Below are positions 12,078 through 41,237 of a DNA stretch of 64,000 nt, piece after piece. Positions within the stretch are counted from its first letter, which is position 1, and every line of letters starts with the position of its first letter. A model generated the notes under the pieces. It was not told the DNA's origin, searched no databases, and saw only the letters and a program-made list of their open reading frames with translations. Source of the stretch: Candidatus Woesearchaeota archaeon. Lineage in GTDB: Archaea > Nanobdellota > Nanobdellia > Woesearchaeales > GW2011-AR4. Location of the stretch: assembly GCA_018303625.1 (NCBI GenBank), contig JAGVXV010000010.1, positions 13,411-77,410 on the forward strand, written 5' to 3'. The position numbers were made by a program, and so were the translations under genes.

Positions 12078-12171
12078 GGTGGCCGTAGTTTAATGGTAGA
12101 ATAAGCGGCTGTGGATTGCTTTGTTTGCAAACAGAGCCCGCTTGGAGTGGGTTCGATTCCCACCGGCTGCC
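12078..12171 (+). tRNA. tRNA-His (GTG) with about 22-nt intron in anticodon loop; G-1 encoded
   Basis: Acceptor GTGGCCG/CGGCTGC, an extra 5' G-1 opposite discriminator C73 (a His identity element), U8A9, D-arm GTTT/GAAT, and anticodon stem AGCGG/CCGCT with loop CTGTGG|intron|. The T-arm is GTGGG-TTCGATT-CCCAC. Confidence 0.7.
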
Positions 12172-12258
12172 CTTTTTTATATAAAATGGCGGGTTCGTTT
12201 CAGCTTTGGTGATTTTTATTTTTTTCCGCAAGCTTTTTAAATACCCCCATTATCCTTA

Positions 12259-31501: not shown

Positions 31502-34108
31502 TTATTGCCTTAAATCTTTTTTTATAAAATCATAAATCTGAGGGAACTTTCCAATATCAAGTAGCTGTTCATGTAAAACTTTAAGGCTGGAACAGCTGCC
31601 ATTCACATAAAAGTTTTCTGCATACGGCAATTCTGCATTTGCCCTTGTCACAATTCCGTCGCCATCTTCGCCGCCAGTGTTGCATCCTGTTCCGACAACC
31701 ACATATAATTTTGCACTTTTTGGGGTTTTCGACGGGTCATTTAGCTTTTTTATGAAGATGCTGTCTTTAGCCATGTCGCCACACTCCTTATTTTCACCCA
31801 ATATGGGGCAAAAACCGCTTACAGCTCCGGAAATGCCTTTGTTAGGCGTCCCAAACATTATCAGCTTGTGGACGCTTTGTTCCCCGAATATCTGCATATA
31901 GCTTCTTGCCACAAGACCTCCCATGGAATTAGAGAAGATTATCACTTTTTCCCTTCCTGTCCTGAACTTCAGAAGGTCTACAAGCTCTTTTAGCCTTAAA
32001 GCGTATGTTTCTATATTTTCACTTTTTTGCTGGGACACAACATAGCCCCCAATATCATAATAGCTTACAAGATAATAGCTGCCCTTAACGGAAATCGGCT
32101 TTGAGGACAAGCCCCATTCTCCCCTGTTTACTTCAGAATAGTTGGAAACAGGGGTTATTGTCCCGGCGCTTAAATAGCCGTCTTCCTCAAGCCTTGATAT
32201 TAATTTGTTGAAAGCGTCCAAGGAATAATCCGGAGAATTGTCGCTGTTCAATGCGTGGCCATGAATGAAAAGTATAGGGTACAAGGCCGGGTCTTTTCTG
32301 CAGGATTCCTCCTGGCAGCATGGCCTGCATTCCCCAAAAATACAGCATACGGGGTAATTATCCGACAGAGATACGTCAATTCTCGAGCTGAAGTTTTTCT
32401 TTTCAGGGATTGGAACCTTGCCAATGCTGGTTCTGTTCCCGTAGTATTCCGAAAGATTTAATTCCGGGGTTATGGCGCAGTAATCATTATAGTATTTTAT
32501 TGACTGATTTGTCAGGTTCAGGCTTATCAATGATAAAATCTCGCTTTCTGAAAATTCCCCGTAGTCTGAATCCTCTATCAAAGGCGTTTCATTGTAAGCC
32601 GAAAGCATCCCAAGAAGCATATTCAGGGAAAAATTCTGGTTTTGGCTTCCCGGGCTCAGGCTTTTTATTTCATTATAATGCCTGTTTTTTATCATGCCGA
32701 TTTTTTTATTTTTTATTTTCTCTGCTATGGCAATAACTTCCCTCATGTTTACGTAATTTTTCATCAGGTTGCCTGATATGTTATTTTCAATTGATTGCAG
32801 TCCTTTTATTTCATTGAAAGAGCTGCAAAATGAAGCTATCTTTCCGTCGTCGACATCAAAGAATTCATCTTTTATGGAAGAAAGGTTTCTCCTATCGAGG
32901 CATATTCCCTTAATATCGCAAAGAATATCCTCTTCAAGGGCTGAGTAATAAAATCCGGCAGTATATGCTTCTATAAATCTGTCTTTTGATCTAGCTGTTA
33001 TCCCGCTGAATGATTTTTCGGCTTCGTTGATGCTCTTTTCAACATAGCTGTAGTTGGAAAATGTGTTTTGCCTTATTTCATTTTTTATCTTTTCAACTGC
33101 CCTTAAAGCCGAATTATGCTCCTCAAGGATTTTTCCCGAGCCGGGCCTTAGGCCGAATAACAGGGTTTGGTTCAGTTCCCTCAGATTGGCCTCTATTTCA
33201 TCAGCCTCCTCTGCCAAGGTATTGTGCATCTCAAGTACAGACTGCATCCTGCTGCTGACGCTGCCTAGTTCTTCCGATATTTCCTGGAGCCTTGCTTCGT
33301 AGCCCTGGCCGTAAAGCTCGGAAAGGTATGGGTAATTCTGGCTCGACCATACTCTCCTAAGATTTTCTGTTTCCAGCACAATGCTGCTGTATTTCTGGTT
33401 CAGGATATCTTTTTCCCTGCTTATCTCGTTGAGGTTTATATTGAATGCCAATTCAAAAAACTGGCCATTAAGCTCCTGAATCCCTATATCAATTTCTGAA
33501 ATTCTCTTAAGCACTTTTTCCAGGTCTTCCTTCAGGCTGCTTTTCAAAAACCTCTCATATGCCGACAGGTCATAATTTAATGTGACAAAGGATGCTTTTT
33601 GCCTCTTTAACTCGTCTGTCAGGCAATACCACGTCCTTATATTATTGCAGGCTACACTAAACCTGTATATTTTCTGGCCGCTTCCAACGGAATCTATTGA
33701 CAGGTTATAGCCTTTTGAAAACCTTTTCTGGGTGCCTGAGCCTACAGAATAGCCCTCTTCAATAAGTCTTGATGAGGATATGTCATAAAACTCGTAGCTG
33801 CAGCGGCTGTCGCAAAAAAAGCTGTTTTTCACTTCCACATTGAATGTAACGCCGGGTGTTTCATTATAAAGTACGCTCAATGAGATGTCATTGGGATTGA
33901 GGCTTATTGAAAGGTCCTCTGTTATCAAAAAATGCAGATTCAGCCACAGCCTATAGCCGCCGAACAATGCAAATATGGCAAGAGCTATGACAACGGCTAT
34001 AACGGCCTTTTTGTGCTTGCCAAGAAAATCCTTCATATTACTTAGCTTATTTTTTGAGGTTTTCTCTTTCTTTGGGCTGTTTTCTTCTGTTTCTTCTTTT
34101 TCCGGCAT
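31502..34108 (-). CDS. Large membrane-anchored extracellular protein with C-terminal alpha/beta-hydrolase (PGAP1/lipase-like) domain
   Basis: 868 aa. The N-terminus has a single TM ('AVIAVVIALAIFALFGGY'). A long coiled-coil/Asn-rich middle region has many N-x-S/T sites. The C-terminal roughly 280 aa carry 'ILFIHGHALNSD' and a nucleophile elbow 'IIFSNSMGGLVARSY' (GxSxG). Confidence 0.55.
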   Translation of the reverse strand: MPEKEETEENSPKKEKTSKNKLSNMKDFLGKHKKAVIAVVIALAIFALFGGYRLWLNLHFLITEDLSISLNPNDISLSVLYNETPGVTFNVEVKNSFFCDSRCSYEFYDISSSRLIEEGYSVGSGTQKRFSKGYNLSIDSVGSGQKIYRFSVACNNIRTWYCLTDELKRQKASFVTLNYDLSAYERFLKSSLKEDLEKVLKRISEIDIGIQELNGQFFELAFNINLNEISREKDILNQKYSSIVLETENLRRVWSSQNYPYLSELYGQGYEARLQEISEELGSVSSRMQSVLEMHNTLAEEADEIEANLRELNQTLLFGLRPGSGKILEEHNSALRAVEKIKNEIRQNTFSNYSYVEKSINEAEKSFSGITARSKDRFIEAYTAGFYYSALEEDILCDIKGICLDRRNLSSIKDEFFDVDDGKIASFCSSFNEIKGLQSIENNISGNLMKNYVNMREVIAIAEKIKNKKIGMIKNRHYNEIKSLSPGSQNQNFSLNMLLGMLSAYNETPLIEDSDYGEFSESEILSLISLNLTNQSIKYYNDYCAITPELNLSEYYGNRTSIGKVPIPEKKNFSSRIDVSLSDNYPVCCIFGECRPCCQEESCRKDPALYPILFIHGHALNSDNSPDYSLDAFNKLISRLEEDGYLSAGTITPVSNYSEVNRGEWGLSSKPISVKGSYYLVSYYDIGGYVVSQQKSENIETYALRLKELVDLLKFRTGREKVIIFSNSMGGLVARSYMQIFGEQSVHKLIMFGTPNKGISGAVSGFCPILGENKECGDMAKDSIFIKKLNDPSKTPKSAKLYVVVGTGCNTGGEDGDGIVTRANAELPYAENFYVNGSCSSLKVLHEQLLDIGKFPQIYDFIKKDLRQ

Positions 34109-34179: not shown

Positions 34180-35931
34180 ATGCAATATGGCAAGCTAGTC
34201 GAATTTTACGAGGAACTTGGCAAGACTACAAAAAGGCTGGAAAAAACGCATATAATTTCTGAATTGCTTAAGCAGACTCCCGCTGAGGATTTGCCAGTTA
34301 TAATGCTTCTCCTGGAAGGGCGCCTGTTTCCGAGCTATGATGCCAGGGAAATTGGCGTCGCCTCGAGGATTATTTTAAAGGCAATAAGCGCCGCATCAGG
34401 GATTGAAGCCGGCAGGATAGAGAAAGAATGGAAAAAAACAGGGGATTTGGGCCTGGTTGCTGAAAATCTGATAAAGGCAAAGAAGCAAGCGACTTTGCAC
34501 AGCCAGGAATTAACTGTAAAAAAGGTTTTTTTGAATCTCAGGAAGCTTGCCGAGCTTGAAGGCTCTGGAACTGTTGAAAGAAAAATTCAATTAATTTCCG
34601 AGCTATTGACATCGGCAAAGCCAAAGGAGGCAAAGTACATAGTAAGGACAATCTTGCAGGTTTTAAGGGTGGGTGTTGGGAGCGGCTCTGTAAGGGACGC
34701 CATAGTATGGGCGTTTTTTTCTGGTGAGATAAATTTAAGGTATAATAAAGAAGAAAACAGCATGGAAATAGGAAACAGGGAAGAATACAAAAGGCACATT
34801 GACGCTGTGCAAAAAGCATTTGATGCCACGAATGACTTTGCTCTGGTTGCAGAGGCTGCCAAAACAAAAGGCCTTAGCGGCCTGAACAGCATCGGCCTCT
34901 TAGTCGGAATTCCGATAAAGGTCATGCTCGCATTGAAAGTCGATACTGCCGAGGAAGGCTTTGAGAGAGTCGGGAAGCCTGCTGAGCTGGAATTCAAGTA
35001 TGACGGCTTCAGGATCCAGGCGCACAAGAAAAACAACGAGATAAAGCTGTTTACAAGGCGCCTGGAGAATGTTACAAACCAGTTTCCTGACGTTGCCGAA
35101 TACATAAAAAAGCACGTGAAAGGAAAAGAGTTCATCATTGACAGCGAAGCTGTCGGCTACAGCAACAAGACAGGAAGGTACCTTCCTTTTCAAAGCATCT
35201 CCCAGAGGATAAAAAGGAAGTATGATATTGAAAAAATGTCAAAAGAGTTTCCGGTTGAGCTGAATGTTTTTGACATCATCTATCATGACGGAAAAAATTA
35301 CCTCAATGAGCCCTTTGAAAGCAGAAGAAAGCTGCTTGAAGGGATTGTAAGCCAAGAGAAGAAAAAAATCGTGCTGGCAAAAAGCTTGATTGCATCCAAT
35401 GCAAAGGAAGTTAAAAAGTTCTATGAGGAGGCCATTAAGCTTGGGAACGAGGGATTGATGCTCAAGGCATTGAATGCTCCTTACAAGCCCGGCGCCAGAG
35501 TCGGTTATATGGTGAAATACAAGCCTGCAAAGGAAACATTTGACCTGGCTATAATAGCAGCTGAATGGGGCGAGGGCAAAAGGGCTAAATGGCTCAGCAG
35601 CTATACAATTGCGTGCACTGACAACGGCAATTTTTTGGAAATCGGCAAGGCAAGCACAGGCCTTAAAGAAAAAGATGAAGAAGGCCTTAGCTTTAATCAG
35701 ATGACAAAGCTGCTCAAGCCTTTAACTTTATCAGAAAAGGGCAAGGAAGTTGCAGTAAAGCCTTCTATAGTTATAGAAGTCGGCTATGAAGAAATACAAA
35801 AAAGCCCCACTTACAGCTCGGGTTTTGCATTGCGCTTTCCAAGAGTAATAAAGCTAAGAGATGATAAAGGCCCTGAAGATGCGACAACATTGGCCATGAT
35901 TAAAGATTGCTACAATAAGCAGAAGAAGTAG
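34180..35931 (+). CDS. lig: ATP-dependent DNA ligase
   Basis: 583 aa with the adenylation motif 'EFKYDGFRIQAHK' (KxDG), plus 'EGLMLK' and a C-terminal OB domain. The N-terminal DNA-binding domain is typical of archaeal LigA. Confidence 0.95.
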   Translation: MQYGKLVEFYEELGKTTKRLEKTHIISELLKQTPAEDLPVIMLLLEGRLFPSYDAREIGVASRIILKAISAASGIEAGRIEKEWKKTGDLGLVAENLIKAKKQATLHSQELTVKKVFLNLRKLAELEGSGTVERKIQLISELLTSAKPKEAKYIVRTILQVLRVGVGSGSVRDAIVWAFFSGEINLRYNKEENSMEIGNREEYKRHIDAVQKAFDATNDFALVAEAAKTKGLSGLNSIGLLVGIPIKVMLALKVDTAEEGFERVGKPAELEFKYDGFRIQAHKKNNEIKLFTRRLENVTNQFPDVAEYIKKHVKGKEFIIDSEAVGYSNKTGRYLPFQSISQRIKRKYDIEKMSKEFPVELNVFDIIYHDGKNYLNEPFESRRKLLEGIVSQEKKKIVLAKSLIASNAKEVKKFYEEAIKLGNEGLMLKALNAPYKPGARVGYMVKYKPAKETFDLAIIAAEWGEGKRAKWLSSYTIACTDNGNFLEIGKASTGLKEKDEEGLSFNQMTKLLKPLTLSEKGKEVAVKPSIVIEVGYEEIQKSPTYSSGFALRFPRVIKLRDDKGPEDATTLAMIKDCYNKQKK

Positions 35932-37158: not shown

Positions 37159-38214
37159 ATGGTAGAGGTAGGAAGAATAGTCAGAGATTTGGAAACTGTG
37201 AGAGAGCATTTACTTAGAACTGGAGCTAGGCCAGAAGTTGTTGACGCATTTAACAGAACTTTTCTACTTGACACTTTAAACACAGATGTCCTATCCAGAT
37301 TTGCATTTTATGGGCTACTGAGACGAACTATAGAAAATTATATTGAAGGGAATTTAATAATAGAACGCCAGGATAGAAGAAAACTGAATGGTGGCGATAG
37401 AGTCAATCTTAGGGGTAAAGCCAAAGAAGATAGAAGAGCCGAAAGAATAGAGGTTACAAGTGACATGATAGATGTAGCTATGTTTGATTTAGGCCGTTTT
37501 AAATTTTATAATGACGAATTTGGGGAATTAGTTGGAGATTTGCTTCTAGCAGTTGTAGGCGGAATGATTAGCAAGAACCTAAGGCCGTATGACGCCACCA
37601 CAGCACCAGTGGATTATGAATCTCTTTTGAGAAACATAGGCAGTGGGGTTGCAAGTAGGGAAAAAGGTGATGAATATAGGGCAATGATAGTCGGGACAAG
37701 ACAGCATAAGACAATAATTAACCGTATTCTTAAAAATGTCAGAAAGGAAGCCATAGAAGAGGCTTATAAACAAGTTAAAGGAAATCCAGAATTGATTAAT
37801 TTGTTTAGAGGTGATTCTTACGCAGAAAAAGAAAGTAACCTAGAGAAGTTTTACAGAGCACAAAAGACTATGCCAATAGTGTTAAGGGTAGGGTATGCCA
37901 TACTAAAAGACATTGAAAAAGAAGTTGAAAGAACTGAGCGCGCCAGAGACCCTGAGAACCTAGCTACCCGCTTGATAGTGGCAAGCACGGATACACAAGA
38001 AGCTGTTAAGATGAGCGGTGATTTGGGAAAAGTTTATTCTTATCAAGATTTAAAGAATGGAAAAATTGGGGGTAAAACGACAAGCCACATGCCTCCAAAT
38101 TTAGTTGAGATGGTTCAAAGGTATGGTGGTGAAGTTTTTCACCGTAGAGTTCTTGATGAAATTCGAGCCTCTCATCCTGACGCTTACAGATTGTTAACAA
38201 GAAGAACTGGTTGA
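37159..38214 (+). CDS. hypothetical protein (351 aa), Arg-rich, atypical codon usage
   Basis: A long, clean ORF adjacent to tRNA-Arg. Its codons are strongly AT3-biased (aga, tta, gta, aca) in contrast to core genes. No enzymatic motif is recognised. It ends with a Walker-A-like 'GKIGGKTTS' near the C-terminus. Confidence 0.4.
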   Translation: MVEVGRIVRDLETVREHLLRTGARPEVVDAFNRTFLLDTLNTDVLSRFAFYGLLRRTIENYIEGNLIIERQDRRKLNGGDRVNLRGKAKEDRRAERIEVTSDMIDVAMFDLGRFKFYNDEFGELVGDLLLAVVGGMISKNLRPYDATTAPVDYESLLRNIGSGVASREKGDEYRAMIVGTRQHKTIINRILKNVRKEAIEEAYKQVKGNPELINLFRGDSYAEKESNLEKFYRAQKTMPIVLRVGYAILKDIEKEVERTERARDPENLATRLIVASTDTQEAVKMSGDLGKVYSYQDLKNGKIGGKTTSHMPPNLVEMVQRYGGEVFHRRVLDEIRASHPDAYRLLTRRTG

Positions 38215-38236: not shown

Positions 38237-39787
38237 TCAATAATCCACCAGGCTGATCTGCCCTTTCCTTTTTCCAGATGGAATTTCTTTTATTTCCTCT
38301 CCTACCTGCTTCTTCACATTCAAAGCGACTTTTTCTCCCAGAATCTGCACTAACTTTAAAAAATCTGCCTTCTTAACATCCCCGATATCCTTGATCTTGT
38401 TGTTGTACAATTTCCTTGCCCTTACTCTTCCAATCTGCTCAAGCCTCAATAAGGGCAGCAATTCCTCTCTGACGCCATACTTCATTCTCAGCCTCAGCTT
38501 CGCAATTTCCCTGATCAGGCTTTGGTAATGCAAAATTCTTGATATTTCCTCAGAGGAGTAAAGCAGCCAGTCGGCATTGTCCAGCTTGACCCTTAATTCG
38601 CCAGGCCTTAGGTTGTACTGCTCGAGCAGAAACTCCTCGTCTTTCTCATCGGTCCAGTCGATAAACATCAATGCTGTTTTAATGCTGTTCAAAAAGTCAT
38701 CATATTCGGGCTCGTACATGGAAGGCTCATGCTCAAGCAGAAAACTTTCGTGCTTTATCAATTCCTCCTGGATTTTCTCATTTTCTTTTGCGCCAACCCT
38801 GAGCAAAGGCCTCATTTCAAGTGTATGGCATGCCATCTGCAAAAGGGAAAATTCATTTATTTTTTTGTCAGAGGCATTCCTCAGGCAGCTTATGATGAAA
38901 AAAGCAGTCAAGGGGTCAATGTAAAGCTCTGCAACTCTTTTGCCCATTACTGTCGCCCTTATCTCCTCATTTTCAAATTTATCAGCATCCCTGAATTCAT
39001 TTTTCTTCCTGGCTATAAATTCCCATTCTTCCAGCAAATCCAGCATTTTTGATATTATCATTTCAAGCTTTCCAAAATCCCTGAACTGGTAGGCCCAGAA
39101 TGTCCTCTCAAAAAAATCCATTATCTGGCTTTTGTTTCTTGTGAAATCAGCCGCAATCAGGCTTAATAGGTATGTCCTTAACACAGGCTCGACAGCAAGC
39201 TTCGAGTAAATATCCTCAGGCTCGCCCAAAATGTACATCTCGTAAATCTTGTTTTTTTCACCTTCGCTGCCTGCAATTGCAATTGCCTCTCCTGTTTTGT
39301 CAAATTTAGGCCTGCCAGCCCTTCCTGACTGCTGCAGATATTCCAGAACAGGTATCCATGCCAATCCTCTTGGGCTGTATCTCCTCAAATCCTTAATAAT
39401 GACCCTGAATGCCGGAAGATCAACTCCATACGCCAATGTTGGGGTTGCGCAGATAATCTTGATTAAGCCGTTCCTGAAGTTATTTTCAATCAGCTCCCTT
39501 TGCTTTGAAACCAGGCCGGCATGGTGAAAAGCAATTCCTTTTTTTATGCAGTAAGCCAGCCTTTCGCACTGCTTTGTAGGCCTAGAAAGGGCGTTAAGTA
39601 TGCCGTCAGAAATTCTCTCTAAATCCGCATTGCCCACCTTTATGCTCTTGGCTATTTCCTCAGCGGCTTTTTCAGCGCTCCTCTTGGTATTTGCAAAAAC
39701 TATAGCCTGCTTTCCCAGATTAATCGTGTCCAAAGCCAGGTTTGTAACAGAATTATCGCTATGATTGGGTATTTTTTTATTGCCCAT
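38237..39787 (-). CDS. Hel308/Ski2-like DNA helicase, C-terminal portion only (RecA2, WH, ratchet and HLH domains); N-terminal RecA1 domain absent
   Basis: It begins at the RecA2 domain ('GKQAIVFANTKRSAEKAA', 'AFHHAGL', 'TPTLAYGVDLPA', 'QQSGRAGR' motif VI). The Hel308-type WH/ratchet/HLH C-terminus continues to 'KRKGQISLVDY'. A TAG stop lies 5 codons upstream of the ATG. No Walker A/DEAH is present. Confidence 0.7.
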   Translation of the reverse strand: MGNKKIPNHSDNSVTNLALDTINLGKQAIVFANTKRSAEKAAEEIAKSIKVGNADLERISDGILNALSRPTKQCERLAYCIKKGIAFHHAGLVSKQRELIENNFRNGLIKIICATPTLAYGVDLPAFRVIIKDLRRYSPRGLAWIPVLEYLQQSGRAGRPKFDKTGEAIAIAGSEGEKNKIYEMYILGEPEDIYSKLAVEPVLRTYLLSLIAADFTRNKSQIMDFFERTFWAYQFRDFGKLEMIISKMLDLLEEWEFIARKKNEFRDADKFENEEIRATVMGKRVAELYIDPLTAFFIISCLRNASDKKINEFSLLQMACHTLEMRPLLRVGAKENEKIQEELIKHESFLLEHEPSMYEPEYDDFLNSIKTALMFIDWTDEKDEEFLLEQYNLRPGELRVKLDNADWLLYSSEEISRILHYQSLIREIAKLRLRMKYGVREELLPLLRLEQIGRVRARKLYNNKIKDIGDVKKADFLKLVQILGEKVALNVKKQVGEEIKEIPSGKRKGQISLVDY

Positions 39788-39896
39788 TAAATAAAGAAGC
39801 TATCAGAAATTTATAAAGCTTGTGGATTAAATTATCAGTTAAGAATGTATAACTACTCTATAAAATTGACACAATTCCACATTTTTATTTGATGAA

Positions 39897-41237
39897 TTAA
39901 GAAGTTGGGTCTGATACTCTACCTATAAACAGAATTGTATTATTTTCACGTTCTTGAATTATGAAGATAAAAGGATGGTCTGCACGAAAAATTGGTGTTG
40001 GTGGTGGGATCGATATAATTCCAATAACAACTGCTGTTGCAGCTGCTGCTTCTGTGCCTTCCTCATTCACATCAACAAATGCCTGATGGATAACATCGCT
40101 AATAACAAGGTCTTTTTTTCCATCAATTCCAGAAAAATCCGCTTCTAGTGGATCAAATGATGATAAGATTCCCATTTCTTTAAGATTTTTAGAGAGAAAA
40201 TATTTACTATCAAAAGTAAACCGAGGTATAAAAACATCAACGTTTTGTTCTTTCAACTTGGTAACCCATTCAGTAAATTTAACTGTGGAAAGAGAGCTTT
40301 CAACTTTTTCTAAGTCATCATTTTTTGGAAGTAGGATTATCATCGATAAATTGTTTCCTTCATACAGCAATTCAAGAATCTGCGATTCATCTGTTTCTGC
40401 ATAATTGAATCTTGACTCTGTATACCTCATAATTGGCACTATTACAGTTTTTTCATTATTCACCTTAAATTCTTCATCCTTGGTTTCTTCTTTATCAAAT
40501 TGTACTAGCCAGTTTGCTTTAAAGTAAATTGCATTTGTAAGTACCAATCTTGTCGCGGCATCAAGAACGCCTACTGGAATTAAATCCTTAATCTTATCAT
40601 TAGTTTTATCTTCTACCCATTTATTTATTGTCTGCCGAGCTTCTTCAGTCGCTTTTATGAAATCAACAAGATTAGCGCTTGCATCATAATATTTTTGCAA
40701 TACATTAACATATTCATCTAAAATTCCAAAATCTTTTTGTACCCAAAATGCATTTGCAGTGCTAAGATTATATTTACTGTCCTTGCTATTTATTTTACTG
40801 TTAAGTTCTACATATGACAATCTAAGCAAGCCATAATCCTCTGGAAAATGCAATGTTCTTGCAATCTCATTTGCAGTCTCTCCACGTGCTCCTTCATATG
40901 TCATTGCAAGTGCTGCAGTAATGCTCCATGGAGAGAAAAAGATATTCCCTTCTTCCTCACTTAATTTTGAATAAAGATCAAAAGCAAATTGATTATTAGA
41001 GTCTGAAATGCCACTAAAATTTACTGTAATTGCTTTGTTATCTTTCTTTGCGGGTAATTCATGCTCTATAGATTGATTTTTAGCAGCGGATTCACGTTTC
41101 TCTAGAGGAGCAATTTCTTCATCTTTTTCTGGCAAATTATTAAATATCGCCAAATTAAGAACTACTAGAATACTAACTATAACGATAACTATCCATAAAA
41201 TAGTTAAAATCGTTTTCTTATCCATTTCCTCCAACAT
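39897..41237 (-). CDS. Serpin (serine protease inhibitor), membrane-anchored/secreted
   Basis: An N-terminal TM is followed by a serpin fold. It has the hinge 'NEEGTEAAAATAVVIGIISIPPP', the canonical EEGTEAAAAT inhibitory hinge, and the C-terminal 'FRADHPFIFIIQE...ILFIGRV' serpin signature. Codon usage is AT3-rich. Confidence 0.85.
   Translation of the reverse strand: MLEEMDKKTILTILWIVIVIVSILVVLNLAIFNNLPEKDEEIAPLEKRESAAKNQSIEHELPAKKDNKAITVNFSGISDSNNQFAFDLYSKLSEEEGNIFFSPWSITAALAMTYEGARGETANEIARTLHFPEDYGLLRLSYVELNSKINSKDSKYNLSTANAFWVQKDFGILDEYVNVLQKYYDASANLVDFIKATEEARQTINKWVEDKTNDKIKDLIPVGVLDAATRLVLTNAIYFKANWLVQFDKEETKDEEFKVNNEKTVIVPIMRYTESRFNYAETDESQILELLYEGNNLSMIILLPKNDDLEKVESSLSTVKFTEWVTKLKEQNVDVFIPRFTFDSKYFLSKNLKEMGILSSFDPLEADFSGIDGKKDLVISDVIHQAFVDVNEEGTEAAAATAVVIGIISIPPPTPIFRADHPFIFIIQERENNTILFIGRVSDPTS

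Follow-up and report, generated by a model that had tools for sequence, protein, structure and literature searches.

The 516-aa ORF on the minus strand of the window (the whole 64-kb stretch of Woesearchaeota DNA that was analysed) is best explained as the C-terminal subunit of the helicase Hel308/Hjm. According to this reading, to which we assign a probability of roughly 80%, the Hel308 gene was split in the ancestor of a large clade of Woesearchaeota (Nanoarchaeota/DPANN), and the two products would form an obligate, non-covalent two-subunit enzyme.

Domain composition and conservation of the C-terminal half

The ORF starts with ATG; its product is referred to as the C-half, and the features of the gene are compiled in Table 1. 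In phmmer searches against the PDB, residues 15-501 matched residues 227-705 of P. furiosus Hjm (E = 2.5e-87), and the Hel308 proteins of S. solfataricus and A. fulgidus were the next matches. Pfam detected Helicase_C (residues 75-160; 47.9 bits) and Helicase_dom4_arc (PF21280; residues 314-438, cut-off 27 bits), as well as sub-threshold matches to HTH_61 (PF20470; residues 177-258, E = 0.0034) and HHH_5 (residues 445-493, under the gathering score). No DEAD/ResIII domain was found by Pfam in the 516-aa ORF, in agreement with the first-pass annotation, which had described a Hel308-like protein without its N-terminal RecA1 domain (Walker A/B). The same annotation had the ORF running through the winged-helix, ratchet and HLH domains, and the alignment with Hjm is continuous up to residue 705. 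Of the elements characteristic of Hel308/Hjm, the protein contains winged-helix domain 3, ratchet domain 4 and a RecA2 domain that has motifs IV, IVa (F/YHHAGL), V and VI but lacks its first ~18 residues; RecA1 with its Q motif, Walker A, Ia, Ib, DExH and SAT motifs is not part of the protein.

Table 1. Positions of the Hel308 C-half gene, its domains and its upstream elements in the window.
Feature	Position	Strand	Description
C-half gene of split Hel308	38237..39787	(-)	RecA2 without its first beta-hairpin, plus winged-helix, ratchet and probable HLH domains; NCBIfam NF002654 positions 222-710
RecA2 core	39263..39745	(-)	residues ~15-175; motifs IV, IVa, V and VI
Motif IVa, FHHAGL			residues 87-92
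Motif V, TPTL			residues 115-118
Motif VI, QxxGRAGRP			residues 152-160
Winged-helix domain 3	39014..39259	(-)	residues 177-258; PF20470 and unbroken Hjm alignment
Ratchet domain 4	38474..38848	(-)	residues 314-438; PF21280, 105.6 bits
Helix-hairpin-helix domain 5	38309..38455	(-)	residues 445-493; HHH_5, E = 0.0015, sub-threshold; Hjm alignment to residue 705
Spacer	39788..39896	(-)	109 nt, AT-rich; between serpin stop codon and helicase ATG; holds an in-frame TAG; without coding remnant of RecA1
Putative archaeal TATA box, TTTATAAA	39810..39817	(-)	-30 to -23 from ATG

An AF2 model of the C-half alone reached a pLDDT of 77.7, and a fold search with it placed Hjm/Hel308 structures on top; the placement of the domains relative to Hjm was poor (TM ~0.5, rmsd 11-12 A), and the model was used to assign the fold family only. 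Over motifs V-VI (residues 119-164) the pLDDT was below 50, with helices where RecA2 normally has strands. The low values in this model may reflect the missing partner with the N-half hairpin, or just a shallow alignment of low diversity.

More than 100 homologues of the C-half, with identities of 65-81%, were found in Woesearchaeota/Nanoarchaeota MAGs in a search of 5.8 billion proteins. All of them are without a DEAD domain, and they are 513-532 aa long with the exception of one protein of 548 aa and one of 556 aa. Among the representatives of the best 150 clusters at 50% identity, 44 start at the boundary of the window ORF and 82 are full-length, while the remaining ones are fragments or other forms. 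The protein cluster of the C-half includes the NCBI member J4458_02205 from Candidatus Woesearchaeota archaeon. Motif IVa (FHHxGL), motif V (TPTL) and motif VI (QxxGRAGRP) do not vary among 74 C-half sequences, and the pN of 0.19-0.25 compared to a (saturated) pS of 0.74-0.90 indicates that the orthologues are under purifying selection. A neighbour-joining tree of the C-terminal region (101 sequences) was star-like with a few unsplit Woesearchaeota sequences interspersed, and does not settle whether the split had a single origin.

A family of stand-alone RecA1 proteins

A search with residues 1-231 of P0139, the closest full-length relative, retrieved more than 100 stand-alone DEAD-only proteins of 216-225 aa from Woesearchaeota/Nanoarchaeota, many of them encoded internally on long contigs. 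In these proteins, termed N-halves, the Q motif, PTxSGKT, DExH, SAT and WRP are invariant. The AF2 model of an N-half (pLDDT 90.9) ends in a beta-hairpin at residues 210-219. At four loci (L018, L037, L078, L099) the gene lies in the neighbourhood ROK-GalT-(YdjM)-N-half ... FtsY-prefoldin-PRPP synthetase-ScpA, and FtsY is again nearby at a fifth (L102). None of these neighbour genes occurs in the 64-kb window, and the two halves were never adjacent in the loci examined. TTTAAA-type boxes precede the ATG of N-half genes at the same distance as the boxes found upstream of C-half genes (see below).

Complementarity and co-occurrence of the two halves

The best NCBIfam model for both proteins is the Hel308-type equivalog NF002654, which the N-half covers from position 1 to 218 and the C-half from 222 to 710; the two ORFs are thus complementary and non-overlapping, and together they span the unsplit homologue. 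Both halves (287 bits for the N-half, 459 bits for the C-half) score below the curated cut-off of 887 because each corresponds to only part of the model. The N-halves also end where the C-halves start in a multiple alignment (A1). Relative to Hjm, the N-half covers residues 16-214, while residue 15 of the C-half corresponds to residue 227 and its initiating methionine to about residue 213. Domain 2 of Hjm begins at residue 198 (PMC2636818), and therefore the C-half lacks ~18 residues at the start of RecA2. As the break lies ~18 residues inside RecA2, the N-half carries the first RecA2 beta-hairpin (WRPVKLHKGVY..EVEF). The first-pass annotation had the ORF starting exactly at the RecA2 domain, which holds for the region but not for the precise position.

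Both halves were directly seen at separate loci of one genome, the groundwater MAG GCA_016187495.1 (Woesearchaeota NC_groundwater_471_Ag_B-0.1um_36_15); direct evidence for the pair comes from this one MAG, and bins can be chimeric. Its N-half is encoded on contig JACPJP010000027.1 (locus L078, 5187-5849; MBI2523512.1) and its C-half (P0043, MBI2522879.1) on contig JACPJP010000008.1, where the protein of 520 aa is 70% identical to the window protein and the PKD context described below is kept. No matching assemblies were obtained when a second pair in the same genome was sought via P0062, P0318 and P0355. A contig search with a fusion of the N-half and C-half alignments (A2), whose two search patterns were both located within the N-half part, gave three N-half-only loci among the 80 loci listed, most of the others being unsplit genes. 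This search led to the pair in GCA_016187495.1 and to the bin1342 split described below. Both fragments are under selection, and Hel308 is unsplit in most other lineages. From the orthologous genomes we infer that an N-half exists in the window's own genome, outside the 64 kb. The complementary RecA1 family in the lineage and the presence of both halves in one orthologous MAG support the earlier proposal that the gene is split and that its N-terminal half lies at another place.

A predicted two-subunit helicase

In the proposed enzyme, an N-terminal subunit of ~220 aa, expressed from a distant, conserved locus with its own promoter, would contribute RecA1 (Q motif, Walker A, DExH, SAT) and the first RecA2 beta-hairpin. 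The two polypeptides would assemble non-covalently, and the hairpin at the C terminus of the N-half is predicted to supply, by strand complementation, what RecA2 of the C-half lacks. RecA1 would pack on the winged-helix and ratchet domains and close the ring as in single-chain Hel308, with the ATP site at the subunit interface, where Walker A/B from the N-half would face the motif VI arginines from the C-half. The assembled pair would then act as a normal 3'-5' DNA-repair helicase.

Alternatively, the C-half might work alone, for example by binding or annealing DNA without ATP, or together with a different ATPase, the stand-alone RecA1 protein being unrelated and no obligate partner. The separate location and transcription of the two genes would be in line with this idea, and so would the conservation in the C-half of motif IVa, which is implicated in the ATP-independent annealing activity of Hel308 (PMC10484726). 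We nevertheless regard it as unlikely, because the C-half shows no variation in motif V and in the motif VI arginines, which only an inter-domain ATPase site requires, and the N-half shows none in its catalytic motifs. In addition, the N-half holds a piece of the RecA2 fold, the two proteins meet exactly on a single profile, and both were present in one MAG.

Another option is that a single chain is restored from the two halves, through protein trans-splicing with a split intein or through RNA trans-splicing. The PolB of Nanoarchaeum uses a split intein, and inteins do invade the Hel308 of relatives, as seen in motif V of P0121 and from the many homologues of 950-1250 aa. At the break, only ~12 extra residues lie between the N-half end (profile position 218) and the C-half start (222), which leaves no room for an N-intein fragment of ~100 aa and a C-intein fragment of ~35 aa, and a Cys/Ser/Thr +1 context is absent. 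As neither terminus has spare sequence for flanking intein fragments, covalent rejoining is very unlikely, and the non-covalent pair of subunits remains the preferred form of the enzyme.

Inteins in Hel308 were located in motif V (TPTL/C...HN/S) and just before motif VI, in split genes (C-half only, P0121 being an example) as well as in unsplit ones. Several proteins of 375-400 aa begin right after the intein sites; these could be further split forms or fragments resulting from gene calling.

Upstream region and genomic neighbourhood

The TAG that the first-pass annotation had placed five codons upstream of the C-half ATG is in frame and lies at positions 39800-39802. A motif TTTATA(A/T)(A/T) is present 23-30 nt before the ATG in all five orthologous upstream regions compared (window, L004, L005, L087 and L095). 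The C-half gene probably has its own promoter and gives rise to a leaderless mRNA, as judged from the position of this element.

The next upstream gene, 109 nt away, encodes a full-length serpin (39897-41237, minus strand; Pfam E = 2.6e-123), as recognized before when it was described as an unrelated neighbour. Its product has an N-terminal hydrophobic segment, and the gene sits between the PKD-domain genes and the helicase C-half. At the four loci L004, L005, L087 and L095 the gene order is PKD345-PKD630-C-half without a serpin. Hence the PKD genes belong to the ancestral neighbourhood, and the serpin alone was inserted late and in a lineage-specific manner, possibly by horizontal acquisition.

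It had been proposed that insertion of the serpin/PKD block truncated the helicase gene, which would leave the ORF as a decaying relic that has lost its 5' third. The location of the serpin directly upstream and its absence from relatives initially fit such a scenario. As serpin-free relatives keep the PKD pair together with the C-half, the serpin cannot have caused the truncation. These relatives share the ORF length (516-520 aa), the start and the TATA box, the PKD genes were there before, and the ORF has no internal stops and is under strong purifying selection (pN << pS). The relic was rejected on these grounds as barely conceivable.

An ORF with Walker A and DExH motifs was not found in any frame of the 64-kb window. 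Likewise, tblastn searches with the first 240 residues from each of five full-length Hel308 relatives gave no match in the window (best E = 1.4), nor did the same five N-termini match within ±10 kb around three C-half orthologues. The idea that a sequencing or assembly error hides an in-frame RecA1 segment immediately upstream, for which nothing speaks beyond the unusual architecture, was given practically no credence and rejected, as no RecA1-like coding sequence is present in any frame of the window, the spacer measures just 109 nt, and three independent assemblies, made from different samples, have exactly the same junction including this spacer (99.7-99.99% identity to the window over 5.9-21.5 kb).

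A gene of 351 aa (37159-38214, plus strand) converges on the C-half and shows a partial, GGDEF-like match (nucleotide cyclase palm) restricted to profile positions ~25-79, with 35 bits in Pfam and 36.8 bits in NCBIfam against a cut-off of 37.4. In the PDB its product has weak matches to cyclases of the WspR/PleD type, and a GGDEF-annotated gene lies beside or near the C-half at L004 and L095, too. A diguanylate-cyclase-like protein, if this weak and partial match is taken at face value, would be unusual for a DPANN archaeon. An ATP-dependent DNA ligase with three Pfam ligase domains (34180-35931, plus strand) is encoded ~2.3 kb from the C-half; this proximity is not conserved at L004 or L005. 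The adjoining gene (31502-34108, minus strand) codes for a protein of 868 aa with only a weak palmitoyl-thioesterase-like match. Finally, the length of 94 nt of a predicted tRNA-His gene (12079-12172, plus strand) suggests an intron-containing archaeal tRNA gene.

Unsplit and differently split Hel308 in Woesearchaeota

Unsplit Hel308 proteins of 709-744 aa are encoded by other Woesearchaeota (L007-L011), and the gene is unsplit also in other archaea. In the complete chromosome of Woesearchaeota bin1342 (CP070803.1; L012, 5983-10581), Hel308 is split at another site. There, the first ORF (371 aa; DEAD and Helicase_C, i.e. RecA1 and RecA2) stops exactly after GRAGRP, and the second (345 aa; HTH_61 and domain 4) starts at the winged-helix domain and comprises the winged-helix, ratchet and HLH domains. 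The two ORFs are 2.4 kb apart and separated by four lipid-synthesis/PHP genes, which code for CarS, a CDP-alcohol phosphatidyltransferase, a cytidylyltransferase-like protein and a PHP protein. Family and phylum are the same as for the window-type split, and two ORFs again make up a complete Hel308, but in bin1342 the cut follows motif VI. Hel308 has thus been divided in a second, independent manner in this chromosome.

One may ask whether splitting inside the motor created a regulatable two-subunit enzyme and is not just neutral genome erosion, the recurrent fragmentation being a sign of selection for modularity. The C-half, with its DNA-binding ring and annealing motif IVa, might then act alone or switch its activity, depending on how much RecA1 subunit is provided from the other transcript. 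If this were true, the at least two cut sites and the intein invasions in Hel308 of Woesearchaeota would reflect such selection. We consider this possibility doubtful.

Implications and comparison with known systems

Hundreds of database entries, annotated as 'hypothetical protein', 'helicase-related' or 'DEAD/DEAH box helicase, 220 aa', can be explained as halves of one DNA-repair enzyme, and surveys of DPANN gene content can avoid scoring Hel308 as absent or degraded. The two proteins offer a natural split-helicase system for studying communication between RecA1 and RecA2 and fragment complementation. In addition, the window-type split site and that of bin1342 are rare genomic changes which could serve as markers of clades within the Woesearchaeota.

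Compared to archaeal Hel308/Hjm, a Ski2-like SF2 helicase (PDB 2ZJ2, 2P6R and 2VA8), the C-half has the same domain order (RecA2, winged helix, ratchet and probably HLH) and the same motifs IV, IVa, V and VI. While characterised Hel308 enzymes are single chains of ~700 aa, RecA1 and the first RecA2 hairpin come here from a separate locus. A split Hel308 in DPANN archaea was not described in the literature searched, which by itself is no proof of novelty, and the published list of split genes in Nanoarchaeota does not include Hel308 (PMC3655853).

The remark in the first-pass annotation that split genes are known in nanosized archaea is well founded (PMC3655853, PMC4117796). In the Nanoarchaeota N. 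equitans and Nst1, reverse gyrase, RNA polymerase B, AlaRS and other proteins are encoded by split genes, and a 'large helicase-related protein' is split at different sites in the two species (PMC3655853). The resemblance to the present case is that a gene which most organisms have as a single unit was divided into two distant ORFs whose products are presumably reassembled post-translationally, and that SF2 helicases are among the precedents. Unlike N. equitans and Nst1, the organisms studied here are mesophilic Woesearchaeota, found in groundwater, in marine settings and elsewhere. The reverse gyrase of N. equitans is an active heterodimer of a helicase and a topoisomerase subunit (PMC4117796) and is thus cut between functional modules, whereas Hel308 is cut inside the motor, in RecA2. 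The Hel308 described here is a conserved, genuine split gene which joins the already well-known split genes of DPANN archaea, and its one mildly surprising aspect is the position of the cut, within the helicase motor itself.
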